A stretch of DNA of 40,586 nucleotides from an uncultured bacterium (GCA_964619725.1 CAZUFC010000078.1:1-40586); one strand, 5' to 3'; positions 9,003-36,947 are shown, numbered from the stretch's first letter. A program made the numbers and translations. The notes: generated by a model not told the origin, from the sequence alone.

Positions 9003-9126
9003 GGTTGTCCTTATCAGGAGCGAACTTAAGAGGCTTTTGAAAAAACATGACGTTGATTATGATGAAAAATGCCTCCTGGGTTGAAAAGCTGTTCAACCCT
9101 TTCAGTGTTTTCAAATTCATCCGTCC

Positions 9127-9164
9127 TGCCCAGGGCAGTGCTCGCAAGCTCGCTCAGGCCTGGG
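9127..9164. repeat. REP-like palindrome
   Basis: GCCCAGG-GCAGTGCTCGCAAGCTCGCTCAGG-CCTGGGC inverted repeat in the intergenic region after the activator gene. Confidence 0.55.
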
Positions 9165-9391
9165 CTTTTTGTCAGGACCACTTCGGGGTCAGCATTATTG
9201 TTTCAGGCGTGTGTAATAGTCAGTAATCAAAGAGTCGAATTCTAAGCATTAGAGTATCGGCGGGTTGTTTTTCTTATTAGTCAGAGCCCAGACATCTCTT
9301 TTCTTAGGTCCATTATAAATGATGGGATATTTTGAATAATTGTAACCTCAAAAGACCCATTTTTGATCAATGCCGGGAACCTATACCCGCT

Positions 9392-10828
9392 TCAGCGATA
9401 CAATTCAATATCCTGGGCTTCAATGACATCTCTTCCGTTCATTACGGCATTGTATACGGCTCTCGATGCGAGGTCTTCCAGCTCTCTGAAGTTTCCTCTG
9501 AAGATGTGGGTTTCAATCTTTTCGAGGGCTTCTATTGTGATGCCGCAGATTTCTTTTCCGTTATTACCTTTGGATTTATTTAATTTAGGGTCCTGCAGGA
9601 CATAATCAATAAGGACGCGCAAGTCTGATTTCCTCTGGTGCATAGGCGGCACTTTCAGTTTATACCGGAATCTGTGGTAGAGATCGTCCCTGAAATTTCC
9701 GGCTTTGATTTCTTTTTGAAGGTCCTTGTTGGTGGCGGCTATGATATAGGTAGGAGAATAAATGGGTTCCAGGTAGGGCCATCCGAGAGGTTGGAACGCG
9801 AACCTGTCAAGATATACAAGGAGTTTCGCCTGTAGAGCGGGAGGAGCGTCTCCGATTTCATCCAGGAACACGGTTTGACCCCAGGAAAGGAGGAGGCGCC
9901 CGGGACGCGAAACAGAGCCGGTGAATGCTCCGTGAACAGAACCGAAAAGTTCCGTTTCCAGAAGCTCTTCTGAAACGTTGACCATTGGAATTTGCGTCAA
10001 ATGGCCTTTTCCCGCATCGGAAAGACGCTGATTCAACCATCTGGCGATTAGCGTTTTACCGGTCCCAGTTTCGCCTTCCAGCAGAATGGCAGGCGGCCTG
10101 ACTACAGATTCTGGCTTTATATAGTTTTTGAGGTCGGTTTTTATTTCTTTTAATTTTTTACTTTTTCCGGTCTGCTCGCTTAATGCTTCTCCAATCCTGC
10201 GAAAAATATCCAGTACATCCTGGGCGTCCGTAAAAGGTTTATCGTTTGCCTGCATCCGGTAATTTCTGACCCTGTCGATGGTATAAAGCAGATGATGAAG
10301 AAAATCAATCATCTTACTGTCGAGAAAAAGACTCACAAAGGGACGCTCACGGTAATCAGAATCCTTCGTTTGAATTTTCCATCCCAGACTCTTACAAGGT
10401 AATTTCTCTCCTCTCCTCCTGAGACTCCTTCTGACCTCCTGCTTGATTTTCGCCGCCAGATGTCCGCATTCCTCCGGGTCCTCGAAACTCCTCGCCCTGA
10501 ATATTGAATTAATAAAAAAATACCGGTGGTCCATGACTTCGTTCACCATATCAGCATTGTATTCTTCCGCTATCAGAATGACAGGAATATTCTTCACTTT
10601 CAGCTTATCCATCAGAAGAGATATACCCTTCATCTGCGATATGACCAGCAAAGGATCATTCAGATTCTCCACCGCCAGTCGTTCCGGTTTCATTCCTTTA
10701 ACGGAGATGCCCAGAAACTCCTTCTTCGGCCTGATCTCTGACTCGGCGTATTGCTTGATGAATCCCTCTATGATTTGCCGGTGTCTTTCATTATTGGAAA
10801 TTACTATTATTTCTTTGGCGTTATCCAT
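9392..10828 (-). CDS. Sigma54-dependent AAA+ activator (bEBP) lacking a C-terminal HTH
   Basis: Walker A GETGTGKT, ETELFGSVHGAFTGS, Walker B FLDEIGD, AATNKDL, FRDDLYHRF and GNFRELE. The protein ends just after the AAA lid. The N-terminus looks like a degenerate receiver-like domain. Confidence 0.93.
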   Translation of the reverse strand: MDNAKEIIVISNNERHRQIIEGFIKQYAESEIRPKKEFLGISVKGMKPERLAVENLNDPLLVISQMKGISLLMDKLKVKNIPVILIAEEYNADMVNEVMDHRYFFINSIFRARSFEDPEECGHLAAKIKQEVRRSLRRRGEKLPCKSLGWKIQTKDSDYRERPFVSLFLDSKMIDFLHHLLYTIDRVRNYRMQANDKPFTDAQDVLDIFRRIGEALSEQTGKSKKLKEIKTDLKNYIKPESVVRPPAILLEGETGTGKTLIARWLNQRLSDAGKGHLTQIPMVNVSEELLETELFGSVHGAFTGSVSRPGRLLLSWGQTVFLDEIGDAPPALQAKLLVYLDRFAFQPLGWPYLEPIYSPTYIIAATNKDLQKEIKAGNFRDDLYHRFRYKLKVPPMHQRKSDLRVLIDYVLQDPKLNKSKGNNGKEICGITIEALEKIETHIFRGNFRELEDLASRAVYNAVMNGRDVIEAQDIELYR

Positions 10829-10897
10829 GATCGTTTCCTCCTCTAACGACGCCTTTGACTTCCAGGAAAAGCATATCCGGTCAATCTCTCTTTCGCA

Positions 10898-11896
10898 TCA
10901 ATCGCAGTTACGCTCTTCTATGGATTCCTTCAACTTTTTAAGTCTTTCCCTTTTACCCGGAATGCCGTATTTTTCCCTCAGATGCCTTACCACATTTTCC
11001 GTGAGGGATATCTTGTATTGACTCCCGAATTTTCTGTTTATCTTCCTCGCCAATATCTCATCATTGCATGCCGGATCATATTGAAGGCAATCGCGAATAA
11101 AATCAGTCGCCATGTTTTTTATATACCGGGGGATTTTCTCTTTCCTTCTTGCGTCGAAAGAACAGAACAATTTTAGCGGAAAAACTCCCATATGAGTGAC
11201 CCGGACGAAACAGGAACTGATTAAATTGTAAAGCAGTTCTTTCGACGGCGGTTCCCAGTCTTCATCCCACATCCCGGATATTTCATTGCGCAAGTCGGTC
11301 TGCGAAACTTGATGGCGGTTCATTTCAGCCATGAATTCTTCTCTGGTATTCGTCAGAAGAGCATCCCTGAAAGTCGAAAGAATAAATTGTCCAATATAAT
11401 TGAGGATGCATAACTTTCGATCCATACAGTTCTGAACCTGCAGTCCCGTAAACGTATTTTTTCTGATTAGCGGTTGTTCGGAAGGATAGGCATTCAGCTC
11501 ATTACCGAATCGTGCAACCGTTATTGATGGAACCGAAGCCAGAGTATGCCGAGTATTCAATTGCGCCGAATCGCATAATTGACCTTCAATGTCAATACTT
11601 TCTCCCGAATCAGGCTCGAAAGCTTCATCATCCCATTCCCCGCCCAATATATCATCAACATCCCATTCTTCATCAGGTGATCCATCATCCATATCCCAAT
11701 TTTCATCATCCGGTTCCGATTCCGGTTTTTTAACTTCAACTCCCTTTAAATCATCATAGTAAGTCGCAAGCCAGGCGATATTCTTGTTTTCCGGAATTTG
11801 AGTTATTCGAGATAACAATTTGTTGCTGATTCCAAGGTCTGCATTTTTTCTTTTTTTGCCGGTTATCTCATTTGATTGCCCTAATTTCTTCTTCAA
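10898..11896 (-). CDS. Divergent, shortened sigma54 (RpoN)-like factor
   Basis: C-terminus VRVTHMGVFPLKLFCS...NDEILARKI...ISLTENVVRHLREKYGIPGKRER is colinear with RpoN (TPRGIFELKYFFS...SDxxIA...IARRTVAKYRExLxIP...R). Acidic Trp-containing region II-like tract. TTG start with AAGGAG 9 nt upstream. Confidence 0.8.
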   Translation of the reverse strand: MKKKLGQSNEITGKKRKNADLGISNKLLSRITQIPENKNIAWLATYYDDLKGVEVKKPESEPDDENWDMDDGSPDEEWDVDDILGGEWDDEAFEPDSGESIDIEGQLCDSAQLNTRHTLASVPSITVARFGNELNAYPSEQPLIRKNTFTGLQVQNCMDRKLCILNYIGQFILSTFRDALLTNTREEFMAEMNRHQVSQTDLRNEISGMWDEDWEPPSKELLYNLISSCFVRVTHMGVFPLKLFCSFDARRKEKIPRYIKNMATDFIRDCLQYDPACNDEILARKINRKFGSQYKISLTENVVRHLREKYGIPGKRERLKKLKESIEERNCD

Positions 11897-11997
11897 TATT
11901 TATTTCTCCTTTCTTTTGAGTTCAGCTATTTTTTTATCGCGATTGGACCATGACAAAAGCAGTGATCAAAAAATTTAAATTCCCTGAACAATTAACT

Positions 11998-14900
11998 TCA
12001 CGGCAATCCTAAAATCATTTTGCTTTTATTGCCGGGCGATGTTTTTTCGCCGTCATTCCATGCCGCTTTTGCGATGACTCTGATTGCATCACGGAAGGAA
12101 GCCCGTGCCAGGAAATGCCTGTTTTCATCATTGGCGGCGTCTTTGATGCTCCTGATATAACCGTTCCGGATCATTCTTTTCAGGACTATTTCAAAATGCC
12201 TGTCGTCGACTGAATCCGTGTATATTGAACGCAAATAAGGCATGAAAAAGTCATAGACATTTTGTACGTCAATCTTACCTTCTTTGATTTTCACTGTGAT
12301 TATTCCATCCAGGTTAAGCAGCGACTGGACAAATTCCAGGCTTATGCCTGAACCGGCAAGACCGCCTGTATGAAAAGTTTGCATGCTGAGCTGAGTGCCC
12401 CGTTCTCCGACAGACTGTCCGGCAATGATGCCGACCGGAAGTCCAAGTTCCGGAAACCGTCGCTGACTTATATCCCATCCATAACATCTCGCGCATATCC
12501 CTTCTGTCTCTTTGCAGGTCAGGGGCGATCTAATCCGGATACTTTTTATTTTTTTTATCTCGATCTCCTTCATTGCTTCAGGTGTGATGACGCTCCCTCG
12601 GAACAATCCGCCTTTATTTTCTGCAATAACTCTTCCAATCAGTCTTTTGCGGATATTATCCGAATCGATTTTAACGGTAATTCCCGGAATGGATTTCGTC
12701 CTGCCGGCGCAGCAGTCCTCGACGACGATGGCTACGGGGTAGCAGGCTTCAACTAAAATTCTGGTGAAATTTCCGGCTACTGGCGTTTTAAGTTTTTTAT
12801 CGGCCAGTGTCTTCCGGGAAGCTTTCAGCGACATGAAATATTCCATAGGCGGGATGCCCTCAAGAAAATTGGACAGGAAAACATGCGGTATTTTTCCTTT
12901 AACGCCCTCCAATATGCCCCTGAATCCACCCAACTGGGAAACCTGGTCGGCGTTGCCGCGGGCGCCTGAAGCGAACATCAATGCCAGAGGATTCGGAGGA
13001 GATTGACGGGCCAGATTATATAAAGGCTCAACAATTTTCCTTCTCATTTCTTTAGTCTCTCGCAGCCATTGGCAGTATTTTCTGCGTTCAGCCATGCTCA
13101 AAAAAGGGATATCGAAAAGGGAGAAGGTAATCCCGGCGAGAGTCGCCTCTCTGAATGCCCATTGCATTATTACGTTTGCAAGGCGGGCTGTTTGCCGGGG
13201 CAAGTCTTCCTCCGCCGATTTTAAGGCTTCAGCGAGAATTCGCTTTGTAACTGGACCGGAGAAGCTTTTATCAGATTCTGCGCCGAAAATGTAAAACGGA
13301 TCATTCTTTTCCGAGGCGTAGTAAACGCCGGCAATTATGTCCTGTGCCAGATGCAGATTCAAATCACCGTTTGCTATGGACAGAAGATTACGTTCCGGCA
13401 ACAGGCGTGAAGCCTCATCAATCGACTCGCGTTTCAAAGGCAGATATACCGCCATCGTATCTCCATCAAAGTCTGCGTTGAAACCTGCACATACCAAAGG
13501 CGGCAATCCGATCACGTTGTCCGTCCGTCGTACTGCATGAAAAGCCTGGAGACTCAATCGATGAAGACTGGGCGCTCTGTTCAGAAGCACGGTGAATCCG
13601 GCATTTTTACTTTCCGTCAAAGGCAGAAAAGCATCATATATGCGAGCCGGAAGCGCAGCCTGGTTGATTTCCAATGAAGGGTCGGGGACTATCACGGCCC
13701 TGGCCGAACAGTCTTGTCTTCTCCCCAGCAATCCTTTCCTTAAAAGTCCCTTTTTCCCGGTAAGATGATCGCTTATAGAGCCCCTGCTTTTTCCCGCAGC
13801 TACTCCGGGATATCCCATCAGTCTTTCTACCGCATACTGAACGCCCTTTTCCGCCTTACGAATAGATGCTGGACCGCTTTTTTTTTTGGTCTTCAAGTAT
13901 TTAAGAAACGAGTTCTTTTTTATTAGTTCAGAATATCTCTTATGGAGCGGCGACGGTATCGGGGTTTCAGGAGCATTTATGTAATGACGAAAAGCGGCAG
14001 GGACCACGGGAATCATCGATAGAAAACATCCTTCTGGCGGTTCTTTATTCTTTAACTGCAATAAACGGAAAAGCGCTTCCGGGCCGGTAACCGCTTTACC
14101 GCCATTCCTCAGAATACTTTGCCCCTGAACGTTCGTCAGAATTGAGCCGGCTTCTGATTCATCCTCTTCAGCGCCCTCAAGAAGAACATATTTTTCTCCA
14201 TGGGCAATATCCCTTATTACCGCCGCTTTAACATCATCAAGGTTTTTCATCAGCGGCGACCCTGAAATATAAATCTGCCAGGGGTGTATGACGCAGCAGT
14301 CCAATTTGACGTAAGCGAATCTGGTTCTGTATTCTCTCGTCCCTGCGTCTCCGATGATGGACGTATCCATCAATCCGCCCGGCCTGGGTACGTATATAGG
14401 TTCTTTCACTCTCCTTCGGATGATGCCTTTGCATTTTAATTTTTTACACCGTCTTTTATTTTCATCGCTGCGGACTCTCTTCCAATGTTTACTTGAAAAA
14501 TCGTAGATTTCGCCGCATTTGTCACACTGAAAGAAAACAGGTCGATATATTTCAAAGGGATGGAAATCACCCACAGTTATTTCTCGCAAACCGGCAGTGA
14601 ATTTTTCCATATCAGAAGGAGTGATAGCGAAATCGACAAGTTCATCGGGCGTGATATCTTCCGGTTTACTGACGATAACGGGTTTTTCTCTGGTTTTATA
14701 GAACAATTGAAGGTCCAGCCCCAATCCTTTCAGGTAAACCGCTAGCGCCCATAGCGTCCAGTTTAATTGTTTTTCCCCGCCGGCATCGCCTTTGTCATCA
14801 GAATGTGAGACTACTCTTCCGGCGCCGTCAATGAGCGATTCTTTTACGATCGCTTTTGCATTATAAGCCTGAAGCGCCCAGAATTCCATTTCACCCATTT

Positions 14901-17673
14901 TTTGGCCGCCGTTATGCTTCTTGCCTTTTAAAGCCTGACGGGTAACCAGATCGTATCCGGTTCCGCCCTGACGAACCGTGAGTTTGTCGGCCGCCAGGTG
15001 ATGGAGCTTCATAATATACTGGTATCCGACTGTTACCGGTGCATCGAACCCTCTTCCCGTTTTCGCATCAATCAATACCGATTTTCCTTCCGGATACCCG
15101 ATTCGTTTCAAGCGGTCACGAAGCCGGTTTGCTTCTGTCGTATGAAACGGCGGTATGATAAAATGAGTGTTCTCCTTATATGCGATCATGCCCAGGTGCG
15201 TTTCAAATATCTGGCCCAGGTTCATTCTTGAAATGACGCCGTGAGGATTAAGAATGACATCAACCGGCGTACCGTCGGGCATATGCGGCATCTCATGCTC
15301 CGGGAGCATGAGTCCTATAACCCCTTTATTGCCGTGACGCCCCATCAGCTTATCGCCTACTGCTATTTTTCTTTCTGTTAAAATCCTTATAGAGATGATT
15401 TTTTCGGGATAATGAGCAAAAAGGTCTGCGCCGGTATATTGCGTCTGCACATCATAAACTTCACCCTCAAGTCCCGGCCAGGCAGTTACTTCACCCTTTT
15501 CCGTATGCATCAGAACAGTCCCGGGAACGACTTCGGCGCCTTTTCTGATTATTCCGTTAATGTTCAACATGCGACGATCTCTTCCGCGTGGGCCCTGATG
15601 TTTAATAATATTGCCCGGCCATACAGGAATTCGAATTTCCTTCTCATGAAAAGACGTCAACAGATTATCCCTGACCAGCCTTTCGCTGATTACAACGGCA
15701 TCCTCGAAATTGTAACCTTTCCAGGGCATATAAGCAGTCAGAAGATTTCTGCCGAGAGACAGAATGCCGTTTTTAACCGACGGACCTTCGGCCAATATCT
15801 CTCCCGCTTCAACCTTCTGTCCCGGCGAGACTGAAGGACGCCTGTAAACCGGAATTTTCGTGTTGCCGCAACGGACCCGGCCTATATCGACTTTTATCGT
15901 TTTCCCTTCTGAATTCTCCAGAACTATTAATCCTTTATCTCGCTGAATTCTTCGGATTCTTCCCGTCTGCTTCGCTCGCACGATCATCCCGGCTGCCTCC
16001 GCTGCAAGCGCTTCAAATCCTGTTCTTATTAATGGAGGTTCAGGATTAACAAGCGGCAATGCCTGTTTCATGTTTTTTGCAGCCATGATCGCCCTGGCGC
16101 CGTCGTTATTTCCTATGAAAGGTATAAGCGATGCCGCATAACCTAGGAATTGACCGGGAAAATTTTCAGCCATTACGGCTTCTTCCTGACGATCATCATA
16201 AATTAATGTGCGCTCCCGACCGCCGATCCTGGACCTCCTCATGCATTCAACATATCCGTCTGCTGGTCCGGAAGACAATGATCTCAATCCGTATCCGGGG
16301 TCAGCGAATCCAGGACTGCTCCCGAAAAATGGACGCCTTTCATTTGCCGGCGGCATCATTGTGATTCCCGAAACGCTTCTTGAAGGACTCGCTATTCTGC
16401 CTTCCTCATCAATCGATGCATACGCCGCCAGAAACAAGTCCAGTCCTATCCCTTCCGACTCAGGCGTCTCGACAGCACATAAACGTCCGTAATGACTTGT
16501 ATCCAGGTCACGCCTGGCAAGCGGCGTCACTTTTCGGTCCAGTCCGGACGGACCGCCGAAACTGATTTTCCGCTGCGAACTCAAAATTGATACAGGATTC
16601 CTGTCTTCAAACAACTCGCAGCTCTCTTTAAAAAAATTGCCTAATGATCCCTCCAATGCATACGGCATGCAGAACCAGACAGGGCTGTTCTTGTTAATTT
16701 TCTCTCTATTCCCGGCTAATTTGCGCATAAGTATAAACAACGACCATCTCACCGCCTGTTCCAATCGGTCACCAGCCAGTCTCACCCGATAGCTCTCCAG
16801 ATCATTCAGGTCCTCAGCGCCCGGCCAGTCAGCGCCGAGAAACTCAGAAGCAACCCGCACATCACCGGCTGTTACATACTTCTCTTCATTGACCGCCAGA
16901 CATGTCCGGTTTATCGCCTTCCTCCCGTCTCTGCCCAATGCGAAATAAATATTGTCGTAAAATGGCGTTTTGAAGTACGCATTGACCGGACCTCGACCAC
17001 GGAAGAAGCGCTCGCTCTCAAGCAGCTCCAGAAATTCCTCCAGGTCGATCTTCACCGATCCCATCCGGATACGCTTCCGAACTCCCTTTTTAGTTACAGA
17101 GCCTACAAGGTTAAAATGAGGCCCGAAACGGGGCTGAAACCTTATTATTCGCTTCCTGCCGCCTTCAGCCGATAGGAAATGCATGCCCGGAGAAAAATAA
17201 AAATAACCCGTCGGCGACCATTCCACAGCATGGCCTGTCCTGTTTTTCCTGATAAATGTCCCCCAGCCCGTCATACAGGGAAAAGGGCCTAATCTGAGTT
17301 CAGAATCCCATTTATGTTCATTATCGAATAAAACTTCTGTCTCTAATACAACTTCTCGATTGTAATCCGTTATGCCTTGCCTGGCAAGCTCTTCATCAGG
17401 ACCGGGCGTCTCAATTTTATAACCCGTAAAATTCAAACGAATATTACGGTCTTGCGATTTTATCGTCAGCCCGGAAGCCTCCTTTAATACCTTTTTCAAT
17501 CCCCTTTCATGCAGACTTTCATAAGCAGCTCCTGAATCAAGAGCCTTAGTCTGCAAAAAACGGTCATAAGATTGAATATGAGGCGGTTCTGCGGAAGCGC
17601 CGTATTTTTTTAAGCCTTCCAACCACTTATCCATGACGGTTTTTCCAGCTATTTCTGAATTAAATACTTCCAT
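11998..17673 (-). CDS. Fused, streamlined DNA-directed RNA polymerase beta-beta' subunit (RpoB-RpoC-like)
   Basis: Beta motifs: HYGRLCAVETPE, GYNFEDA, GDKLMGRHGNKG, NPHGVISRMNLGQ, GGQKMGEME. Beta' motifs: LLNRAPSLH, NADFDGD (13459-13479), SGARG, CARCYG, GTQLSMQTFHTGG. One continuous ORF of 1891 aa; alternative start at 17634. Confidence 0.96.
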   Translation of the reverse strand: MEVFNSEIAGKTVMDKWLEGLKKYGASAEPPHIQSYDRFLQTKALDSGAAYESLHERGLKKVLKEASGLTIKSQDRNIRLNFTGYKIETPGPDEELARQGITDYNREVVLETEVLFDNEHKWDSELRLGPFPCMTGWGTFIRKNRTGHAVEWSPTGYFYFSPGMHFLSAEGGRKRIIRFQPRFGPHFNLVGSVTKKGVRKRIRMGSVKIDLEEFLELLESERFFRGRGPVNAYFKTPFYDNIYFALGRDGRKAINRTCLAVNEEKYVTAGDVRVASEFLGADWPGAEDLNDLESYRVRLAGDRLEQAVRWSLFILMRKLAGNREKINKNSPVWFCMPYALEGSLGNFFKESCELFEDRNPVSILSSQRKISFGGPSGLDRKVTPLARRDLDTSHYGRLCAVETPESEGIGLDLFLAAYASIDEEGRIASPSRSVSGITMMPPANERRPFFGSSPGFADPGYGLRSLSSGPADGYVECMRRSRIGGRERTLIYDDRQEEAVMAENFPGQFLGYAASLIPFIGNNDGARAIMAAKNMKQALPLVNPEPPLIRTGFEALAAEAAGMIVRAKQTGRIRRIQRDKGLIVLENSEGKTIKVDIGRVRCGNTKIPVYRRPSVSPGQKVEAGEILAEGPSVKNGILSLGRNLLTAYMPWKGYNFEDAVVISERLVRDNLLTSFHEKEIRIPVWPGNIIKHQGPRGRDRRMLNINGIIRKGAEVVPGTVLMHTEKGEVTAWPGLEGEVYDVQTQYTGADLFAHYPEKIISIRILTERKIAVGDKLMGRHGNKGVIGLMLPEHEMPHMPDGTPVDVILNPHGVISRMNLGQIFETHLGMIAYKENTHFIIPPFHTTEANRLRDRLKRIGYPEGKSVLIDAKTGRGFDAPVTVGYQYIMKLHHLAADKLTVRQGGTGYDLVTRQALKGKKHNGGQKMGEMEFWALQAYNAKAIVKESLIDGAGRVVSHSDDKGDAGGEKQLNWTLWALAVYLKGLGLDLQLFYKTREKPVIVSKPEDITPDELVDFAITPSDMEKFTAGLREITVGDFHPFEIYRPVFFQCDKCGEIYDFSSKHWKRVRSDENKRRCKKLKCKGIIRRRVKEPIYVPRPGGLMDTSIIGDAGTREYRTRFAYVKLDCCVIHPWQIYISGSPLMKNLDDVKAAVIRDIAHGEKYVLLEGAEEDESEAGSILTNVQGQSILRNGGKAVTGPEALFRLLQLKNKEPPEGCFLSMIPVVPAAFRHYINAPETPIPSPLHKRYSELIKKNSFLKYLKTKKKSGPASIRKAEKGVQYAVERLMGYPGVAAGKSRGSISDHLTGKKGLLRKGLLGRRQDCSARAVIVPDPSLEINQAALPARIYDAFLPLTESKNAGFTVLLNRAPSLHRLSLQAFHAVRRTDNVIGLPPLVCAGFNADFDGDTMAVYLPLKRESIDEASRLLPERNLLSIANGDLNLHLAQDIIAGVYYASEKNDPFYIFGAESDKSFSGPVTKRILAEALKSAEEDLPRQTARLANVIMQWAFREATLAGITFSLFDIPFLSMAERRKYCQWLRETKEMRRKIVEPLYNLARQSPPNPLALMFASGARGNADQVSQLGGFRGILEGVKGKIPHVFLSNFLEGIPPMEYFMSLKASRKTLADKKLKTPVAGNFTRILVEACYPVAIVVEDCCAGRTKSIPGITVKIDSDNIRKRLIGRVIAENKGGLFRGSVITPEAMKEIEIKKIKSIRIRSPLTCKETEGICARCYGWDISQRRFPELGLPVGIIAGQSVGERGTQLSMQTFHTGGLAGSGISLEFVQSLLNLDGIITVKIKEGKIDVQNVYDFFMPYLRSIYTDSVDDRHFEIVLKRMIRNGYIRSIKDAANDENRHFLARASFRDAIRVIAKAAWNDGEKTSPGNKSKMILGLP

Positions 17674-21334: not shown

Positions 21335-21348
21335 GTTTTATTTACCCT

Positions 21349-23652
21349 TCATCCACCTTGGCGTTTACCCCCTCTTATTTCAGACGGAGGCAGTAAAGTT
21401 TCCTCTTTTCCTCTGTTATGCGGCCTTTGATTCCGCTGCTCCATAAAATAGCTGAATCCTTCATAGGCTTTTTTTCCCGGCGGATAATACTGAACAGGAC
21501 TTTTTCCTGCCAGATTCAGGTGATGTATATTACAAAGTTCCTTGTAAAATTCTTCTGAATCGAATGCCGATACAGCAGATTCATCAATAATTTCTTCGTC
21601 ACCGGTAATCATCCATGATTTGAAAGTTTTGACTAAATTTTCTGCCGCAGCATGGTCGATTACCTCGATATTGCTCTCATCTGCTGTACGCCATCCGCCG
21701 ACGGGATTTGTTTTAATTATTTTTTCGATTTTGATTTTTATGGATCCCATGCCTAAAGGACGACCCATACCTAATTTATGAGCGAGCTTTTCATTTTCGT
21801 TCAAGGGAGAATCCGAGAGTGAAATCGACCAGAGCAGCAGCCCGAGTTCATAATTCGATAAAGAATCAAACTCGATGTAGCCTTTGAAAACTTTACCGGG
21901 CGGCAATACTGCAGCAGTCAAGTTCTGATTCGTACGTAAATCTTTTTCTTTGATTTCATGGGGAGGTTTTTGGGCGAGGTCTTTATTGATCATCTCCGGT
22001 TTTATTTTAACGTAATCGCATGCCTTTTCCTTATCGTTGCTTATTGCCGTGGGATGATGAACGTAGAACTTTCTTCCCCTAAGCAATCCTGCATTATGCC
22101 ACCACCCACCTGAATCCATTGAATAATAACCAGCTTCCTCGCCCATGTTCTTGTTTTTATCCTCAGGTTTGAGATAAAAGGGATAATACTTTGGTTTTGG
22201 CGAACCCAGTATTTTCAAAGGCAAGAGCACTGTTTCATTTAAACGGCTATCAGACCAGGCCGTTCCGACACGAACGCGCCCCGCCACTGGGGAGGTTTCC
22301 TTTTTCTTTCCTTTCTTTTTTTCTTCTGGACTCCAGCCGAATAAGCGGCTTGCCGGACAAAGGTTCGTGTTCTTTTCAGGGGGCAGCGCCCACGGCGTTT
22401 TGCCGGCCAGTTCACCGGGATTAGACAATTCAGGCGACTTATACATTCCTACGGGACCCATTTCAACAACCATATTGTTTCTGGAGAGAAAACAGACTAT
22501 GTCGCCCGGTTTCGGCTTACGATAATCTTCATTATCACAGTTCGCTTTTTTGAAGAAATCGAACGCTGCGTCATCAACTCGTATCGGCTTTCCTTTTCTA
22601 TAAAGCGCTTTTATATAATGAACTCTTTTACGTTGAGAAGAGTCCATTTCATCCCATCCTTTATGCGGCCACAAGATTATATTAACGTTTCTTTCTATGG
22701 CTTGCCAATTTATCCCATTACCGCTTAACATGCATACTCGATCTTCTTTAAATGTCTTTTTTAATTTGGTGTTTACGTGCGGTATTTTTGGAACAACCCT
22801 GAAGCTCATATCTTGAATTCCATGATGAGGTATTTTTTCTTTCGTTATATCCTTCATCATCGGTCCTTTCCATCGTTGTTTTGAATCAATTATTACTTCA
22901 CTTTTAAAGCCGCTTCGCTTTATTAATTTTCCTTTTTTCACATTAGACATTTTTTTGCTGAAATGTTCGAAATAAGGCAAACCTGCCCCGGAGAAACTAC
23001 GAACAAGTGGAGCTCCTGTGTGTAATTGCCAGAGTTCAGCACTAACAGTCGTCTGATTTCTTCTGAATTCCTCGTATTTTTTAGCCCTGGACTTATCATC
23101 TTTTAAACCTAACGCATTATCAAAGGCTTCTCGCCATATTTTCGCAGTCGCAAAGGGTTCAACGTAATATCCGTTATCATCCTTACATAAACGTCCCCAT
23201 TTTCTGTTGAAAAGATCTTTATCTGCCCTTGAAATATTATCCGCTTTACGGAACCTGTAAACATCATCTTTAACGGAAAATATCCCGAATGAACTGTTGG
23301 AAACGGCCTCAACAATATTCCTGAGCATACCTTTGATGGATGTACCGGGGATTGCCAATCGGCTGTCTATGTTAAAAAAATCTTTTACTGGATGTTCATT
23401 TTTTTCTTTATCCGAATCGCCGTTTTTTGAACTTACTTTGTAATAAGTCGTATGCTCCGAGTCGGGCACAAAGAACGGACTTACATTCATTAAACTGAAC
23501 TCTATTCGACCGGAATGCCCTTTGTATGAGTCAAGAGATTGAAATTTCCTTATTTCACCTATTGGACTTTTCGTATTATCTGAATCGTATCCCCTAGGCG
23601 GTTTTTCTGAAATGGGTGCAAAATTGAATGGGTAAACAAAATGGTTATTCAC
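21349..23652 (-). CDS. cas7: Type III-D Cas7 with large insertion (TIGR03986-like RAMP)
   Basis: YPFNFAPI, IPGTSIKGMLR, CPASRLFG, LGSPKP, LRGRKFYVH and LGMGRPLGMGSI (Gly-rich loop); 767 aa. Confidence 0.92.
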   Translation of the reverse strand: MNNHFVYPFNFAPISEKPPRGYDSDNTKSPIGEIRKFQSLDSYKGHSGRIEFSLMNVSPFFVPDSEHTTYYKVSSKNGDSDKEKNEHPVKDFFNIDSRLAIPGTSIKGMLRNIVEAVSNSSFGIFSVKDDVYRFRKADNISRADKDLFNRKWGRLCKDDNGYYVEPFATAKIWREAFDNALGLKDDKSRAKKYEEFRRNQTTVSAELWQLHTGAPLVRSFSGAGLPYFEHFSKKMSNVKKGKLIKRSGFKSEVIIDSKQRWKGPMMKDITKEKIPHHGIQDMSFRVVPKIPHVNTKLKKTFKEDRVCMLSGNGINWQAIERNVNIILWPHKGWDEMDSSQRKRVHYIKALYRKGKPIRVDDAAFDFFKKANCDNEDYRKPKPGDIVCFLSRNNMVVEMGPVGMYKSPELSNPGELAGKTPWALPPEKNTNLCPASRLFGWSPEEKKKGKKKETSPVAGRVRVGTAWSDSRLNETVLLPLKILGSPKPKYYPFYLKPEDKNKNMGEEAGYYSMDSGGWWHNAGLLRGRKFYVHHPTAISNDKEKACDYVKIKPEMINKDLAQKPPHEIKEKDLRTNQNLTAAVLPPGKVFKGYIEFDSLSNYELGLLLWSISLSDSPLNENEKLAHKLGMGRPLGMGSIKIKIEKIIKTNPVGGWRTADESNIEVIDHAAAENLVKTFKSWMITGDEEIIDESAVSAFDSEEFYKELCNIHHLNLAGKSPVQYYPPGKKAYEGFSYFMEQRNQRPHNRGKEETLLPPSEIRGGKRQGG

Positions 23653-24310
23653 TTTTTTCCTCCATTGATGTCTGTTTGCTTGATTTATTTAGACTGAACA
23701 GAAAATCCTGATCGGCTACCCCCGGTTTAAGCATCCTCATGAAACTTTCACCGCTCGATTCATCCTGATATGTCCTGATTTTCAGAATCGGATAAAAGGG
23801 CAATTTACCATTGGAATTGAATTTCATGTATACATCCGGATACTTAATTTCAGCGCTTCCTTTGATTCTCTGTTCCTTATACCCGGCTTCATCAATCGCT
23901 TTTCCCCATAATATGAGAAAATCGTCCTCTATTGTAACTTCGACGGTTTTTTCAGCGCATTCAATTATTTCGGGACGCATCATTTCTTCAGCAGCTTCAA
24001 TCATGCATACGCATCGAAAAATTTCATTATTAAACCTTCGCCACTCAATTTGACCATCGCTCCAGAAAATACGGCCGCGCAAACAGAAATCTATAAATTC
24101 ATTACCCTTAATTTTTTCCAGAACATCTGTCGGCTGGGGACCCATAAAAAAGAATTTATGCATTTGCTCAATCAACGCCCAGCATTCATCCTGATTCTTT
24201 TTTCTGTTGATCCAATCAGTTATGTAATCTGCGATGTCTTGACCGTCTCCTTCAAATGATAATAATCTTAGATTCATGAAATTATTTTCACTTCTGATTT
24301 GATTTGTCAT
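23645..24310 (-). CDS. csx19: Type III-D Csx19-like subunit
   Basis: Sits between the two cas7 genes, as in III-D operons; motifs GRIFWSDGQIEWRR and LILWG. Confidence 0.7.
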   Translation of the reverse strand: MTNQIRSENNFMNLRLLSFEGDGQDIADYITDWINRKKNQDECWALIEQMHKFFFMGPQPTDVLEKIKGNEFIDFCLRGRIFWSDGQIEWRRFNNEIFRCVCMIEAAEEMMRPEIIECAEKTVEVTIEDDFLILWGKAIDEAGYKEQRIKGSAEIKYPDVYMKFNSNGKLPFYPILKIRTYQDESSGESFMRMLKPGVADQDFLFSLNKSSKQTSMEEKSE

Positions 24311-26055
24311 CTGGCGTCTCCATTCTGTAACTCAAAATTTCTCATTATACTACGGAAGCACTCTTCAGCTTTACGGAATTTTATATTCAACGGATTATCC
24401 TCTAAGGAAGAAATATAGTCATGCTCATTAAAGCTCAATTCGGTTTGATAGGTTTTGAAAGGACCAAGTTTCCGGGCTTTTTCGAATGCTTCGCCTTCCA
24501 GAAGGCCTCCCCTGAAGGTTAGCGCTTCCATCGCAATCTTCTGAAGTTTAACTCGGCCGAATCCTCTATTTTTGCCGTAACCCAACAGAATACGTCCCAT
24601 GCGTAAATCGCGAAGAAGCAGCAGCAGCATACCCAAATGATCCTCACTGAAATCGAACATTTCAATTTCAAATTCAAGATCGCCTTCATCACTTGCTGTT
24701 TCTGGGGGACCTGATGGAAAGAAAGGTCGGCTGTTGAACTTGTGCTGGTCAGCCGCCCCTCCTGAGAATCTATCAAGCGCCACATGGTCAAGCATCTTGA
24801 GACGTGAGTTGAATTTTTTCGAATCGAGCGGCACGGCGTCAGAAAAAATTATACGTCCTCCCATGGCTGGAAATCCGAATAAATGACTAACCAGGCATGA
24901 AACATCACTCTCTTTAAATTTTTCCATATTACTGAAAAGTTTTCCTTCTTCCTCTGCACGTCCTACATCCCAAGCCGCCTCCTTCGCTTTATCACCGCCG
25001 ACAACCGTTCTTACAGCCCTTTCGGCATGCGACCGTAATGTACCTCTTATTGATGAGCCCGGAATATAAGGCTTTTCATTGGTATCCCGGCAAAATGATG
25101 CGTCTACGGAAAATTCTTTCTGGAGCGGGATTAAACCGAAATCGTTATTCGAGCGAATAGCGCCTTTGTTCTTAACCACTTCAGTCGAATAGCCGGTTTT
25201 TACCAATAAAGGTTCCATCGGACGAATTATGCAACTAAAACGAACTTTTTCCGAGGCGATATTATCATTTAATTCAACAACTGCAGTTTTGTCTTCATTC
25301 CGTATTTCTGCAAAAGGTTTTTCCTCAAAGTATTCTTTTCCATCTTTATCCTTTGCATTCCAGCCATTTAAAGCATAAGCAAGGACATCATCGGGTGATG
25401 ATCGGTCGCACTCTCTTATCGTACAATTACATAACTTGAACCGACCGTAACCGGTCCCGATGCTGCCTCCAAAATGAGCCCATCCGTTTTCCATCAATTT
25501 CAATATGTTATGCAAAAGGCTGACAGCCATTTGATCGGGGGAAAGTCCGGAATCCTGTAATCGTAATTCCTGAGTCGTCATTGGTCCTGTTTCTCTAAAT
25601 TCCAACTTTATATCAAAACAAATATCTCCATCCACAACTTCTTCCCGAAATAAACGTTTATCATCCGCACTTCCCAATTCCCTGTTTATCGCATTACGGT
25701 CTCTAACCATTGCACTATAAGATTCACTTTTTACATGTGAATCAAACACCTTTAAGCGGGAAGACTGCCCCTGTTCGCCTTCCGTATCTCCCCGGGCGCT
25801 GCCGAACAGCGCAGCGAAAGCCTTGTCTCTTTCAGAAATATTATAACCGCCATTGACGATCAATTTTCTGGCCAAGGAAGCCATTACGCCGCATAGTGAT
25901 GTTCCCGGCAGAATGGGACGATCGAATGAATCGAGCATAACTCTTCTGTCGATGAACTCTGAATGATCGTCTGGAGAACCCACATGAAAGGGCCCCCCTT
26001 GTCGGTCGCCCATTCCTCGTATCTTTAAATCACCCCGTATTAAATAATCTTTCAT
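24307..26055 (-). CDS. cas7: Type III-D double-RAMP Cas7 (Csm3-like x2)
   Basis: Two RAMP units (LPGTSLCG...GGSIGTGYG and IPGSSIRG...LGYGKNRGFG). The ATG at 26055 forms an ATGA overlap with the upstream stop. Confidence 0.92.
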   Translation of the reverse strand: MKDYLIRGDLKIRGMGDRQGGPFHVGSPDDHSEFIDRRVMLDSFDRPILPGTSLCGVMASLARKLIVNGGYNISERDKAFAALFGSARGDTEGEQGQSSRLKVFDSHVKSESYSAMVRDRNAINRELGSADDKRLFREEVVDGDICFDIKLEFRETGPMTTQELRLQDSGLSPDQMAVSLLHNILKLMENGWAHFGGSIGTGYGRFKLCNCTIRECDRSSPDDVLAYALNGWNAKDKDGKEYFEEKPFAEIRNEDKTAVVELNDNIASEKVRFSCIIRPMEPLLVKTGYSTEVVKNKGAIRSNNDFGLIPLQKEFSVDASFCRDTNEKPYIPGSSIRGTLRSHAERAVRTVVGGDKAKEAAWDVGRAEEEGKLFSNMEKFKESDVSCLVSHLFGFPAMGGRIIFSDAVPLDSKKFNSRLKMLDHVALDRFSGGAADQHKFNSRPFFPSGPPETASDEGDLEFEIEMFDFSEDHLGMLLLLLRDLRMGRILLGYGKNRGFGRVKLQKIAMEALTFRGGLLEGEAFEKARKLGPFKTYQTELSFNEHDYISSLEDNPLNIKFRKAEECFRSIMRNFELQNGDAR

Positions 26056-26507
26056 TCCTCTATACCTCCTCGCAATCTCCAAAGCATTTCACGAAAAACC
26101 CTTATGCCTATCCTGGCTCTCTCTTTTTTTTCAAGGGATATTCCTTGTTTCAGGAGTCTCTTTTCAATTTTCGAAATAGCTAAATCATTGCAGTTTTCTG
26201 AATCATCCTTCAGGCAATTTATCCATTTATCGATTTTTTCCGGCAATGTCTTTAGCTGTCTCTTATTCCAGATTGATGAGTCCTTCGATGATTCATGATT
26301 GATGTATTTTATCCATTGCTCTACTCTCTCTTCTCGATGAATCAGATTTATGAAAGGATTATCCCGATTATTCCCAATAAAGGAGGCAAGCGCGTCAGCT
26401 GATTTTTCTGAATCAAACAAAACCTCAAAATAATCTTTTACATTTGTGTCGTTAATTACCTCTCTGATTTGAAATTCCAATGTTTTTATCCTGTAGATTT
26501 TATTCAT
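26052..26507 (-). CDS. cas11: Probable Cas11 small subunit
   Basis: 151-aa helical protein translationally coupled between cas5 and cas7. Assignment is by size and position only. Confidence 0.6.
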   Translation of the reverse strand: MNKIYRIKTLEFQIREVINDTNVKDYFEVLFDSEKSADALASFIGNNRDNPFINLIHREERVEQWIKYINHESSKDSSIWNKRQLKTLPEKIDKWINCLKDDSENCNDLAISKIEKRLLKQGISLEKKERARIGIRVFREMLWRLRGGIEE

Positions 26508-27642
26508 GATTATTGTTTCCCCTCTTGTATTCCTGATGAAACGGATCGTTAATTCTAACTTCGCCGAAACCTTCTGCTGTTCTTAAACCAATTCCCTTTA
26601 ATTGCCCATGAGTCAGTCGATTTATTTTTTCCTTATCGTCGATTTCGTCCGGCCATGAAATCAGAAAAAGAAAAGCGCTGCCTGCTGATATGGAAAGTTC
26701 CGTTTCTCTTGCCCTGGAATAAGCTCCGTTCCAACTGTATGTTTCCTTTATTGACGAATAATGAGTGTATGGTCCTTCGACAGCATTTTCTGGAATGCCA
26801 ACGGCGCCGGCTACCTCTTTTTTCGATATGTACGGCAGCGGTCTGAGCCAATGATCCAAAATTATTGCATCGGAAAGACATGTCACCGTAATATATCCGC
26901 CTAATAAGGCTGGTTTTGGGAGATAATAGGGCGTATCTTCTTTGACTGCGGTCAAGTTTACCGATATTGTACCTGGTTGTCTGCCGACAGGTAAGTAAAT
27001 TGGGTTAGCCCCCAGGTACTTTTTGACGAATTCCTCCATAAGAGATTCTGCTTCTGATGTCAGAACGCGTATAGAACCTAAAAACTTCTGCCCTCTTGCT
27101 ATATTCCTACGGGTGAAGAGACGGCCTTCCCGTGCTGTGCCGCTTTTATTGGAACGATCCGTATGCCCGCGAATCATCATTCTTAATTCCTTGAATTCTT
27201 CGCTGTTCTTCGGTTCTTTGAAATACCATCCCTTTAAAGGCGCCCAGTCAGGATCATAATCGGGCTTTTCATCCATCAACAGATCCACTACCCCCCATGG
27301 CTTAACCTCCGTTCCTTTTTCATCCTTCAGTATAGCGTCTACACCGGGGTAAGCGAAACCGGGCGCGCTCTTCTTGGTTCGAGCCGATAATGGAATCGGA
27401 TGTGCTCTATATGGTCCTTCAGATGGATATAAGTTGGAAAAAATTACTTCTCCGGAATAGAAGATTTTTCGGAAATCATGAGTTGGTTCTTCCCCCGGTC
27501 GTATTCCTGTCGCTGCCGCTGCGGCTCCCCACAAAGTGGTTCCTGGAATATAATCCATCCCCATGTAATCATTACCTGATCTATGCCGGTCTGCGATGCA
27601 TACCTCGTCAGTGATTTCAGCTTCTACTTCATAAATTTTCAT
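26500..27642 (-). CDS. csx10: Type III-D Cas5 (Csx10-like RAMP)
   Basis: DYIPGTTLWGA, FSNLYP, P-I-PLS, CLSDAII, AGSAF and GIGLRTAEGFG. The ATG at 27642 overlaps the upstream TGA. Confidence 0.88.
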   Translation of the reverse strand: MKIYEVEAEITDEVCIADRHRSGNDYMGMDYIPGTTLWGAAAAATGIRPGEEPTHDFRKIFYSGEVIFSNLYPSEGPYRAHPIPLSARTKKSAPGFAYPGVDAILKDEKGTEVKPWGVVDLLMDEKPDYDPDWAPLKGWYFKEPKNSEEFKELRMMIRGHTDRSNKSGTAREGRLFTRRNIARGQKFLGSIRVLTSEAESLMEEFVKKYLGANPIYLPVGRQPGTISVNLTAVKEDTPYYLPKPALLGGYITVTCLSDAIILDHWLRPLPYISKKEVAGAVGIPENAVEGPYTHYSSIKETYSWNGAYSRARETELSISAGSAFLFLISWPDEIDDKEKINRLTHGQLKGIGLRTAEGFGEVRINDPFHQEYKRGNNNHE

Positions 27643-28394
27643 TCTTTTATTCCTCCATGCGCTTCCATCCAAGAGTTGATGAAAATTTCGATCTCATTAT
27701 GCCAGTTTAACTCCTTATCTGGTTTTATTTCACACTTGCCGTAACCCCTATTTCGCGAAGCCCCTAACTCACCGACCAATCGCATACCCAGAAGTAGAAG
27801 ACGATAATCAAACTTCCTTATCGATTCATTGTTTTCGTATAATCGAAAATGATTCTGGTTCTCCTTGATGATTCCGTGCAATTCAGACATTAAAGCGGCA
27901 ACGCCGTCCATAAAAAAATGGTCTTTTTTAACTCTTCGCAATTCAGCATCCACGCGATTGCGAGGACGGCGATCGAGCATCGGATAGCCTGTCATGTTGT
28001 CTCCGAATGTATCCTTTATTTGACGTGTTGCGTCCGCAGAATAATATGCACCTGAAAAATCGAAACCTCGACGATTTATTCCTCCCGGCGCTCCGAAAAT
28101 ACGGCAAAGAGCACACGGCGGATTCTTGGTGCAGAAAAAAAGTTTTTCATCCTCCTGATGTCCTATAGTCGCTTGCTGACCGATACATAATTCGAACTCT
28201 TTCCATCCTTCCATATTATCCTGTAAAAACGTTCTTATGGCATCCTTTACACGTCCCCTCATCGAACTCGCCGGCACATAGGGTAAACCATCATCCATGG
28301 TAGTCATGCGATCATAAACTCCAGGCGATGTCGTCATGCTCCCGATCATCAACGGCGAATCAAAATAAACAGTGTATTTTATTGTCCTAAGCAT
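27639..28394 (-). CDS. cas7: Cas7 (Csm3-like RAMP)
   Basis: SPLMIG...YD (candidate catalytic Asp), PYVPASSMRG, CALCRIFG and LGASRNRGYG. Confidence 0.92.
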   Translation of the reverse strand: MLRTIKYTVYFDSPLMIGSMTTSPGVYDRMTTMDDGLPYVPASSMRGRVKDAIRTFLQDNMEGWKEFELCIGQQATIGHQEDEKLFFCTKNPPCALCRIFGAPGGINRRGFDFSGAYYSADATRQIKDTFGDNMTGYPMLDRRPRNRVDAELRRVKKDHFFMDGVAALMSELHGIIKENQNHFRLYENNESIRKFDYRLLLLGMRLVGELGASRNRGYGKCEIKPDKELNWHNEIEIFINSWMEAHGGIKE

Positions 28395-30027
28395 GCTTGT
28401 CACACTCCCATCTTTTTGTTAATGAATAAAACGGCATTAGTTGAACGGCATCTAAAATCGGCGTGTTTGATTTCGGTGAATCGTTTACTGGAAGACTGTT
28501 TTTTGACGCCGATAAATTAAGCTTTTTGCAAATGTTCCTCCATTTATTCGCTTGTTGCTTATCAAGATGATTCCACCATTCACGATATTGGGCTGATGCA
28601 TCCTTTGCCGAAAGTAAATATCGCAGCTTTTTCAATTTGCTCCCCGCTTCCATATCGGCCATGTCTCCTGCGCTTTTCCAGAGCTCCTCAAGGTGCACGA
28701 ACCATTTAGATGCCGAATGATCATCATTATTTTCCGGTAGTCCGGAAGCAAGGTAAGGACCTCCGAAAAGCGCCGCACCGTTCCGGTCATGCGTCATTCT
28801 CATTCCGTTTCTTACCGTATCCAGATTCCCGATGACACTATTTTGAACTAAATAATAATCTACAAGGCTCGGAGGATAGTTTTTTCCCTTAAGCTTCGCC
28901 CAGGCTCGACCCAGCTTCTTCGCTCTGCTCTCCAACTCGCTTCCCAATCGACGGAAGGCTAAAATCGGATACTTGTAAGGTGCGAGTACGATTCCAGCAG
29001 ACATCGTCAAATAATTCGGCAATTGGCTGCTTGAATTACCATCTTCGCTTATCGATTGCAGCAATATTTGCGATTTCTTTTCAAACTCTTCAATCATGAC
29101 CCGCACCAATGGTATAGCGTAAGCCCCTATTACGGCAAAACAAATATCATCACCGCCCAAAAACAGAAGATTAAAAGGGACGGCCAAATCCCTGGAATTT
29201 TTCGTAATTCGTTTTTTGACTGATGCGCCTAGAACCTGCTTCATTGACGATGCCAAGCTTTCCCTAATGCAATTTTTTAAACGAGGTGAAAATTCTTTTA
29301 ATCGATTTTTCGTCACCGCAAAATCACTTAATAACGATCCCAATCCGTTTACATCAGCAAAAACTAATCCCATAAAACGACTTTCAGATGTACCAGGTAT
29401 CTCTTTTCCCCTAACTTTATCTTTCACACTCCAGGAAATCAGCCCTTCAGCGGTCTTCGGAATCCCGGCATCTGTCCATCCTTCTGTCAATTTCGTAGCA
29501 ACCTTATCTTGTTGTCCATTATCACTACGCTTTTCCAGCAACCATTTCTTCCACTCTGAAGCATTTACACGCTCAATAGAATTACCCAATTTAACCAATC
29601 TCTGCGCCGAGCTTTTACCTGAAGTATCACACGTTGCCGATAAAATCGAAGAAGGAGACGGCAATCGAACAGTCTTCGGCGAATCTTTTAAAGAACGAAC
29701 CTTGGACATTAACGGGCTTAATATCTTTTTATAAAAATTCCCATCTCCAGAATGTTCGTATTCTGCCCATTCAACTCCAATATGATATTCGTCGTAAATC
29801 TTTTTTGCCGCATTTACGAATTCCGTCGTCGAAACATTGTTTGGAAATTCAACAAGTACTATTCCACCAAGAGAACGTATCACGTCGCCTTCATAGTAAG
29901 GCGCTAAATCACCTACCCTTTCTTCCGCTTCCTCTATCGCACGACTGCCGTTCCTTATGCCGCGCAAGCGACGAGATGAGAAAACGTATTCTTGAGTCTT
30001 ATTGCAATCAACGTAAACATACTTCAT
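28387..30027 (-). CDS. cas10: Cas10, HD-less, cyclase motif intact (type III-D)
   Basis: YVDCNKTQEYVF, FADVNGLG, LGGDDICF and SAGIV. No N-terminal HD domain; 546 aa. SD AAGGAG 7 nt before the ATG at 30027. Confidence 0.95.
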   Translation of the reverse strand: MKYVYVDCNKTQEYVFSSRRLRGIRNGSRAIEEAEERVGDLAPYYEGDVIRSLGGIVLVEFPNNVSTTEFVNAAKKIYDEYHIGVEWAEYEHSGDGNFYKKILSPLMSKVRSLKDSPKTVRLPSPSSILSATCDTSGKSSAQRLVKLGNSIERVNASEWKKWLLEKRSDNGQQDKVATKLTEGWTDAGIPKTAEGLISWSVKDKVRGKEIPGTSESRFMGLVFADVNGLGSLLSDFAVTKNRLKEFSPRLKNCIRESLASSMKQVLGASVKKRITKNSRDLAVPFNLLFLGGDDICFAVIGAYAIPLVRVMIEEFEKKSQILLQSISEDGNSSSQLPNYLTMSAGIVLAPYKYPILAFRRLGSELESRAKKLGRAWAKLKGKNYPPSLVDYYLVQNSVIGNLDTVRNGMRMTHDRNGAALFGGPYLASGLPENNDDHSASKWFVHLEELWKSAGDMADMEAGSKLKKLRYLLSAKDASAQYREWWNHLDKQQANKWRNICKKLNLSASKNSLPVNDSPKSNTPILDAVQLMPFYSLTKRWECDKHA

Positions 30028-30255
30028 ACACAATCTCCTTCCTCTATGGTTTAAAGTTTTCTATTTATTCTGAGTCGATTAGCTAAACTCGATCCTTCTG
30101 CTTTCAACTCCAATTTCATGACGATGAATTCCATGACCGAATTAAAATTTTTCTGCTGTGAAAAATTGATTTTCCGTTTTCGTCCCTTTCGATTATCTTC
30201 ATCAGTTTACACCTGGATAATTACCCACACATCTCAAAACTTTTGTTATTAACAG

Positions 30256-36940: not shown

Positions 36941-36947
36941 TAGAGAG

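Follow-up and report, generated by a model that had tools for sequence, protein, structure and literature searches.

A compact fused RNA polymerase encoded with a sigma54-like factor and an AAA+ activator in a type III-D CRISPR-Cas locus

Bacteria are generally considered to have one multisubunit RNA polymerase (RNAP) that is redirected by sigma factors, apart from phage-encoded enzymes. Initiation with one of these factors, sigma54, is silent without its ATPase. Here, we describe a type III-D CRISPR-Cas locus in which the effector genes run, on the same strand, into genes for a second RNAP. It lies in a 40,586-nt stretch of DNA from an uncultured bacterium (GCA_964619725.1, CAZUFC010000078.1:1-40586), the whole of which is called the window below. 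The genes in question encode a CYTH protein fused to an RNAP alpha domain (CYTH-alpha), a compact core in which the beta and beta' chains are fused (beta-beta'), a sigma54-like factor and an AAA+ activator of the bacterial enhancer-binding protein (bEBP) type; the last three are referred to as the trio.

The feature is far from known systems. Type III control of extracytoplasmic function (ECF) sigma factors, which use the host polymerase, is known from CalpL-CalpT-CalpS, with CalpS treated in passages of PMC11229360, and from Cas7-11/Csx29, which frees a sigma factor. Like those systems, the present one joins a type III locus to a transcription output, but it carries polymerase core genes and a sigma54-type factor, and family searches of its 12 genes found no Lon or CHAT protease, anti-sigma factor or ECF sigma factor, which sets it outside the Calp/Csx29 group. 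RtcR-type CARF-AAA+ regulators, discussed in passages of PMC4012209, likewise join nucleotide-sensing logic to a sigma54 activator, whereas the window's activator matches them in its AAA+ part only and has an N-terminal domain without CARF similarity at the profile level. The sigma54 (RpoN) holoenzyme with its NtrC-, PspF- or RtcR-type bEBP is similar in that the helix-turn-helix (HTH) region of the factor described here aligns with sigma54 structures, the window's activator has a Sigma54_activat AAA+ domain with a GAFTGA-like loop, and -24/-12-like sites stand in three related loci. It is dissimilar in that the present factor has ~300-370 aa and is encoded with its own compact fused core instead of relying on the host core, and in that the window's activator has no DNA-binding domain. 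Fused beta-beta' chains are found in Helicobacter, Wolbachia and Omnitrophota, but these housekeeping enzymes have 2250-2900 aa, keep all Pfam domains and carry an MGxNMQRQA motif.

A preliminary description of the window stated that no CRISPR locus with a dedicated RNAP core was known, and none was found in the literature searched. A full-text search, with subscription papers outside it, returned no paper describing RNAP core genes in a CRISPR locus and no description of a bacterial compact beta-beta'/sigma54-like/bEBP module. In their main texts, PMC6546367, PMC11229360 and PMC12669027 contain neither "RNA polymerase" nor "CYTH"; "RNAP" is likewise absent from the main texts of PMC11229360 and PMC12669027, and "RpoB" from that of PMC6546367. 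The only sigma passages in the main text of PMC11229360 concern CalpS, and PMC8195603 deals with other polymerase-associated proteins.

Locus layout and the compact polymerase core

Twelve co-directional open reading frames (ORFs), from cas10 to the bEBP gene, run unbroken along the minus strand from 30033 to 9392 with gaps of at most 101 nt:

28387-30033, minus strand: cas10, 548 aa, start codon ATG at 30027; palm2 PF22335 (E=5e-11) and GGDD cyclase motif
27639-28403, minus strand: Cas7-type RAMP, 254 aa; RAMPs (E=1.3e-13)
26500-27672, minus strand: Csx10/Cas5-type RAMP, 390 aa; TIGR02674 (E=1.3e-21; 77 bits, below the cut-off of 177)
26052-26507, minus strand: small-subunit candidate (cas11), 151 aa; assigned by position only
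24307-26082, minus strand: fused double Cas7, 591 aa; Csx7 (117.6 bits, cut-off 108)
23645-24310, minus strand: Csx19-like, 221 aa; weak TIGR03984 match (E=0.0026, below cut-off), assigned mainly by position
21349-23652, minus strand: TIGR03986 RAMP with insertion, 767 aa; E=1.1e-76 (259.5 bits, cut-off 161)
18968-21334, minus strand: CARF7 sensor fused to an HD-CE phosphohydrolase (CARF-HD), 788 aa; PF09651 Cas_APE2256 (E=2e-21) and PF24391 HD-CE (E=1e-10)
17649-18968, minus strand: CYTH, a triphosphate tunnel enzyme, fused to an RNAP alpha N-terminal domain, 439 aa
11998-17673, minus strand: compact RNAP core with beta and beta' fused in one chain, 1891 aa; seven Rpb2/Rpb1 domains, those of beta first, Rpb2_6 at E=1e-72
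10898-11896, minus strand: putative divergent, shortened sigma54-like factor, 332 aa; by family profile
9392-10828, minus strand: bEBP-type AAA+ activator, 478 aa; Sigma54_activat PF00158 (E=2e-36)

The preliminary description had named this gene string and its junctions, and all 12 ORFs and all junctions proved exact: the CARF-HD gene follows the last RAMP gene after 14 nt, CYTH-alpha overlaps it by 1 nt (TAATG, at 18968), beta-beta' overlaps CYTH-alpha by 25 nt, and gaps of 101 and 69 nt precede the 332-aa ORF and the bEBP gene, respectively. The gene identities it gave agree with Pfam and NCBIfam, save that the 332-aa protein matches neither collection, and that cas11, whose 151-aa ORF has no significant family in either, stands by position and Csx19 by a weak match. 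Judged from these families, with two members placed mainly by position and the signature genes Csx10 and Csx19 scoring below their cut-offs, the first seven genes are a type III-D effector set: several Cas7 RAMPs, including a fused one and one of TIGR03986 type, stand beside a CRISPR array, and Cas10 carries cyclase palm domains. A domain and motif check found no N-terminal HD domain in Cas10. The RNAP genes sit within one CRISPR-Cas locus, with its interference part on one side and its adaptation part on the other, and the window holds no rpl or rps genes, as had been noted.

That the second RNAP is catalytically intact is borne out by its motifs. The 1891-aa frame is open and keeps NADFDGD, GDK and RHGNKG; residues D1401, D1403 and D1405 and GDK773-775 are invariant in 50 sequences, and RHGNKG and GGQRxGEME are invariant or nearly so across the 50 aligned family members. 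Pfam Rpb2_1, Rpb2_2, Rpb2_45 and Rpb1_3 were not detected in the protein, which falls short of the full domain set of an RNAP core. Large phages, too, encode reduced multisubunit RNAPs, which have no alpha. Database searches place the protein in a family of fused chains of ~1500-2300 aa, all without Pfam Rpb2_1, Rpb2_2 and Rpb2_45, that come from metagenome-assembled genomes (MAGs) of Planctomycetota, Acidobacteriota, Desulfobacterota and Nitrospirota, are annotated as hypothetical proteins or RNAP subunits, and align with the window's beta-beta' at 29-39% identity. The family signature is MGAKN[LM]KQA, which corresponds to MG[SA]NMQRQA in housekeeping enzymes and appears as MAAKNMKQA in the window.

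An RNAP phylogeny, which had been proposed as a check, united the 69 compact sequences in one clade (FastTree, SH-like support 100), separate from 10 fused housekeeping enzymes and from 5 fused forms on IMG/VR viral contigs; the tree was a quick one with fused housekeeping forms as its only outgroup, which makes deep placement provisional. An origin of the compact family from the fused viral forms is not supported by this tree. These viral forms (L136, L138, L139, L141 and L142) are beta-beta'-like proteins of 2276-2812 aa with the housekeeping-type motif and a clade of their own, and in many of the remaining viral loci a beta'-like ORF precedes a beta-like one, each of ~900-1050 aa; a bEBP match was found in 0 of 77 viral loci. 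Other searches returned only ordinary enzymes or chance matches. The 80 loci retained from a genome-collection scan with the full-length family alignment were all housekeeping rpoBC, as were the matches among PLSDB plasmids, and an exact DNA pattern for MGAKNxKQA gave four chance matches in viral contigs, none of them RNAP. The same pattern matched nothing in 14 genomes of the bacterium's phylum, because the window itself reads MAAKN.

The compact enzyme is not this bacterium's only RNAP. Ordinary rpoB and rpoC lie on another contig of the same genome (C180) and ordinary rpoN on a third (C28), which settles the check for a separate housekeeping RNAP, and the genome has at least 20 activator loops of canonical type. 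Among 13 other genomes of this small phylum, 11 have only the housekeeping RNAP pair and 2 gave no match; the compact second RNAP is in none of them.

Two further genes lie between the effector genes and the core. CYTH-alpha matches CYTH at E=2.7e-9, with an N-terminal ExExK motif at residues 2-6, and RNA_pol_A_bac (PF01000) at E=1.9e-8; its alpha domain also matches alpha chains in the PDB (E=2.7e-11), so that an alpha N-terminal domain subunit is present beside the core in the window. A word-based search returned no relative of CYTH-alpha. Of three public proteins (P0137, P0253 and P0127), two (526 and 569 aa) have a pair of RpoA N-terminal domains in tandem, a covalent alpha dimer, and another has two tandem CYTH domains. 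The CARF-HD protein combines CARF with an HD motif whose H-D residues are invariant in 7 homologues, as expected of a CARF7-HD effector, and PADLOC CARF7 models match it, among them one of the fused order CARF-CYTH-HD (E=7.7e-16).

Sigma54-like factor, activator and candidate promoters

A metagenome scan seeded on the signature region of beta-beta' gave 37 loci. Directly after beta-beta', 19 of them encode a protein of ~280-380 aa; the remaining 18 are cut short, fragmentary or ambiguous at this point. A bEBP homologue lies downstream on the same strand in 16 of the 37 and elsewhere in two (L093 and L105). The trio is thus conserved across distant relatives of the window's enzyme.

By profile comparison, the 332-aa protein is a divergent sigma54-like factor. 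The preliminary description had called it so, and the assignment holds at the level of the family and not for the window's protein alone. On its own, the protein has no Pfam or NCBIfam match and no usable match in the ESM Atlas, and its AlphaFold model has a pLDDT of 44.5. A profile of the 19 middle-position proteins finds sigma54 chains in the PDB at E=7e-9, the top 20 matches all being sigma54, and 4 of the 19 match Pfam Sigma54_DBD (PF04552) by themselves (best E=4e-8). In a search of 295 ORFs, a leave-one-out profile, built without the window's protein, recovers that protein at E=1.5e-7, whereas the next score, of a non-member, is 0.21. The middle-position proteins are very divergent (10-18% identical to the 332-aa protein); common to them are a basic N-terminus, an acidic stretch and, within a helical region, a motif like the sigma54 HTH and the G-x-f-x-L-K-x-F-F stretch that comes after it. 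A sigma54 C-terminal DNA-binding domain is accordingly recognizable in the family, to which the window's protein is linked by the family profile only. There is also a weak alignment of the N-terminal and acidic stretch to residues 20-206 of sigma54 (i-Evalue 0.087). A word-based search with the sigma-like profile gave only six proteins, and a search without positive control of 401 genomes sampled from the phylum of genome G014 gave no match to it.

The activator has the sigma54-interaction AAA+ domain of a bEBP with its GAFTGA-type L1 loop, which reads GAFTGS in the window; relatives have GAYTDA, GAYTGA or GYYTDG. The activators lack a C-terminal DNA-binding HTH, and the window's protein ends at the AAA lid (residue 475 of 478). 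Its best PADLOC match, RtcR_PspF2, covers the AAA+ part only. A CARF identity for the N-terminal domain was considered and is not supported (hhalign probability 0.04 against CARF-HD proteins); one of 14 activator N-terminal domains has a weak Cas_APE2256 match (E=0.006).

Sites resembling -24/-12 elements precede beta-beta' by 11 nt in L088, by 88 nt in L101 (identical in L103) and by 25 nt in L122, against a background of 58 such sites per 406 kb on both strands, from which we estimate that ~0.2 would be expected at those positions. We conclude that beta-beta', the sigma54-like protein and the bEBP probably form a coherent sigma54-type transcription module.

Spread of the trio and its link to CRISPR

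Two other loci, L089 and L098, repeat the arrangement of the window, with RAMP or CARF-HD genes, Cas6, a CRISPR array, RT-Cas1, Cas2 and a small SAVED-like protein, then beta-beta'. Their beta-beta' belongs to a clade distant from the window's, so that the CRISPR label requires at least two changes on the tree. Seven more loci, five of them distinct, have CARF-HD directly upstream of beta-beta'. In L114, L118-L120, which are near-identical, and L123, a CARF plus HD-CE protein abuts or overlaps beta-beta', the gene ends lying between 14 nt overlapping and 5 nt apart; their contigs end just upstream, too soon for cas genes to show. CYTH also recurs beside the trio, as CYTH-nucleoside hydrolase fusions in L097, L109 and L115, and a 215-aa protein directly upstream of beta-beta' in L098 joins the CYTH proteins by BLAST clustering only, with no Pfam match. 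The link of the trio to CRISPR is real, and it is not general. The trio is a rare autonomous module that occurs in many contexts and has been captured more than once by type III loci, not a CRISPR-specific invention. That type III loci and CARF-HD proteins repeatedly captured this autonomous, private sigma54-type polymerase module as an output arm is a reading to which we give an even chance. We regard as equally well balanced the corresponding reading of the window, as a type III-D locus that took in a self-contained sigma54-type module consisting of a fused core, an alpha-like CYTH subunit, a sigma54-like factor and an AAA+ activator.

Several observations weigh against capture as an output arm. 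Among the nine loci with at least 5 kb upstream of beta-beta', seven have no cas genes and only two carry CRISPR-Cas; the preliminary description, which took the RNAP to be dedicated to CRISPR, had named homologues mostly unlinked to type III loci as the outcome that would speak against this, and the dedication does not stand. The alpha domain was found in 0 of the 37 other trio loci by phmmer and profile searches, and neither the sigma54 core-binding domain (PF04963) nor region I was detected among the top families matched by the middle-position proteins. The activator's N-terminal domain matched no known type, and its AlphaFold model has a pLDDT of 47.2. Sigma54-type promoter matches in the window number 4 where 15.8 are expected, a relaxed scan of the window gives two exact matches, both inside cas10, where 1.65 are expected, and no private promoter or target gene was found in the window. 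As to provenance, the source is a MAG with 6.5% contamination, the contig's tetranucleotide distance lies at the 93rd percentile of the genome, and two further samples (X3 and X4) have single contigs of low depth that diverge from the window within the activator gene, at 10634, and rejoin it within the CARF-HD gene, at 19481. The letters that flank these breaks occur nowhere in this genome, and the same samples also hold pieces from inside the interval. A co-occurring variant may therefore have a different segment where the window has the sigma-like, beta-beta' and CYTH-alpha genes, which would make the RNAP segment a swappable insert.

Neighbours of the trio at other loci include TCAD9, a NACHT-type ATPase with RelA_SpoT, a TraG/TrwB coupling protein, SLT transglycosylases, SprT/DUF2786, DDE transposases and an XhoI restriction enzyme. 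HD-CE is the most frequent neighbour family, with 5 of 88 further neighbour ORFs besides those in L097 and L118. At L088, which is identical to a Desulfacinum MAG protein (P0015), a NACHT/AAA_16-HATPase protein (9652-11997) and a RelA_SpoT-type small synthetase (12042-12816) come after the trio.

This variety of settings is what would be seen if the trio were the private transcription system of a mobile element or island, expressing island genes and merely sitting in or next to a CRISPR locus with no signalling link to Cas10 or CARF. We regard this as possible, if doubtful. The seven loci without cas genes, the lack of the module in all 13 other genomes of the phylum and the variant contigs that break at 10634 and 19481 would also fit a mobile island. 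Such an island would not lead one to expect, however, that the window's module stands between effector and adaptation genes with frames that overlap or nearly abut, that CARF-HD directly abuts beta-beta' at five other distinct loci, that CRISPR linkage is found in two distant beta-beta' clades, or that the polymerase's alpha domain is joined to CYTH, which is known as a fusion partner of CARF7-HD.

Many neighbours act on nucleotides: in addition to CYTH, PNP_UDP_1 is found in L098, Maf in L093 and L106, HD-CE in at least eight loci and RelA_SpoT in L088. Their recurrence would suit a polymerase that is itself the effector and, once on, consumes nucleotides or makes harmful or decoy RNA beside nucleotide-degrading partners. 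We consider this improbable, as the sigma54-like factor with its HTH and the activator with its sigma54-contact loop are conserved together with the core, which points to promoter-specific initiation, and as sigma54-type sites precede beta-beta' in three loci.

The junction between the cas and RNAP genes could also be an artefact of assembly or binning, or the RNAP genes could be decaying remnants. The contamination of the MAG, the GC content of the contig (0.447, genome mean 0.473, sd 0.015) and the loose contig ends in two runs would agree with this. Against it, a contig of 15,881 nt that a second assembler made from the probable source run covers 11339-27219 with 0 differences and so spans the 18900-21400 junction on which the preliminary description had asked for read support, and a contig from a third sample bridges the CARF-HD/CYTH-alpha junction at 18968. 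In a second sample of the same study, 29 of 30 bins of the window are covered at 99% identity or more. The supporting runs all come from one study, and one is probably the source, so that they are assembly support and not independent replication. Further, L089 and L098 have the same arrangement, the 1891-aa frame is open with invariant catalytic residues, and the tetranucleotide distance of the RNAP segment (0.0098) is close to the genome's 10-kb median (0.0099). An artefact or a decayed remnant is thus very improbable.

Proposed working and the surrounding genes

If type III loci did capture the module as an output arm, it could work as follows. Upon binding of target RNA, Cas10, through its GGDD motif, would make a nucleotide signal, an activity that is established for the family, and the CARF7-HD protein would receive it. 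The N-terminal sensor domain of the activator may then release its ATPase, whereupon the private holoenzyme would transcribe a few private promoters independently of the host polymerase. Expression of defence genes would accordingly be tightly closed and then strong. CYTH would be tethered to the polymerase through the alpha domain, which suggests that it acts at the site of synthesis, on the triphosphate ends of nascent RNA or on nucleotides. A private core would be insensitive to phage action on the host enzyme. We infer all steps from the Cas10 signal to transcription.

A more far-reaching version is tentative, and we think it rather unlikely as a whole. In it, type III signalling switches on a private, host-independent RNAP: the Cas10 nucleotide, via CARF-HD or the activator's sensor, would license the AAA+ opening of sigma54-like promoter complexes, the enzyme would express defence genes even with the host polymerase disabled by a phage, and the alpha-borne CYTH would process the 5' triphosphate ends of transcripts. 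Such bacteria would possess a mobile second transcription machine.

The finding points to a rare, horizontally moving module with its own reduced polymerase core, a sigma54-type factor and an ATPase switch. If CARF-HD and type III CRISPR-Cas did capture it repeatedly, CRISPR signalling would gain an output of a new kind, and the module would offer a natural, tightly gated orthogonal expression system. It raises the questions of how small a bacterial-type polymerase can be, whether sigma54-type gating works on a fused core without lobes, and whether immune signalling can bypass a hijacked host polymerase.

The rest of the window holds the following features:

346-2553, minus strand: adaptation genes, namely reverse transcriptase (1537-2553), Cas1 (609-1631) and Cas2-like (346-741)
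5258-8212, minus strand: four genes, namely a 253-aa unknown, ExbB/MotA-like (6370-7218), ExbD-like (6138-6572) and a 295-aa unknown
8213-9391, no strand: candidate regulatory region, 1.18 kb with no called gene, separating the bEBP gene from those that follow
31291-36940, minus strand: CRISPR array with 78 repeats (37 nt) that enclose 77 spacers (34-38 nt)
37845-40055, plus strand: 736-aa protein with a C-terminal WYL domain, beyond the CRISPR leader

The genes of 5258-8212 are possible output genes of the module. Nothing was identified in the gene-free stretch at 8213-9391. Between these four genes and the reverse transcriptase lie small or unassigned frames, including ORFs of 242 and 114 aa without a family match. 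PADLOC has no model for the ExbB/ExbD neighbours, for four unknown proteins or for CYTH-alpha. No RNA family of Rfam was matched in the window. In the 736-aa protein, WYL makes up the last 70 residues, and the first 640 residues have no family.

The degenerate repeat of the array is at its cas10-proximal end, which places the leader at 36941-37844 and implies that array and cas genes are read co-directionally. Between its last repeat and cas10, a 143-nt tandem duplication and decayed repeat fragments occupy 31010-31299; an 18-mer comparison of the window's gene-free stretches gave only the CRISPR repeats and this duplication among the best 60 of 1089 pairs. Spacers 55, 58 and 59 (35260-35590 in the window) have matches (32/34 and 31/35 identities) in a type IV pilin-like gene on the chromosome of this MAG, which lies at G000:C6:79822-80032 (L212:7783-8256) and is flanked by ordinary genes, not a prophage. 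Such matches would fit spacer uptake by the RT-Cas1 module from RNA that is abundant, or else a target that a relative carries.

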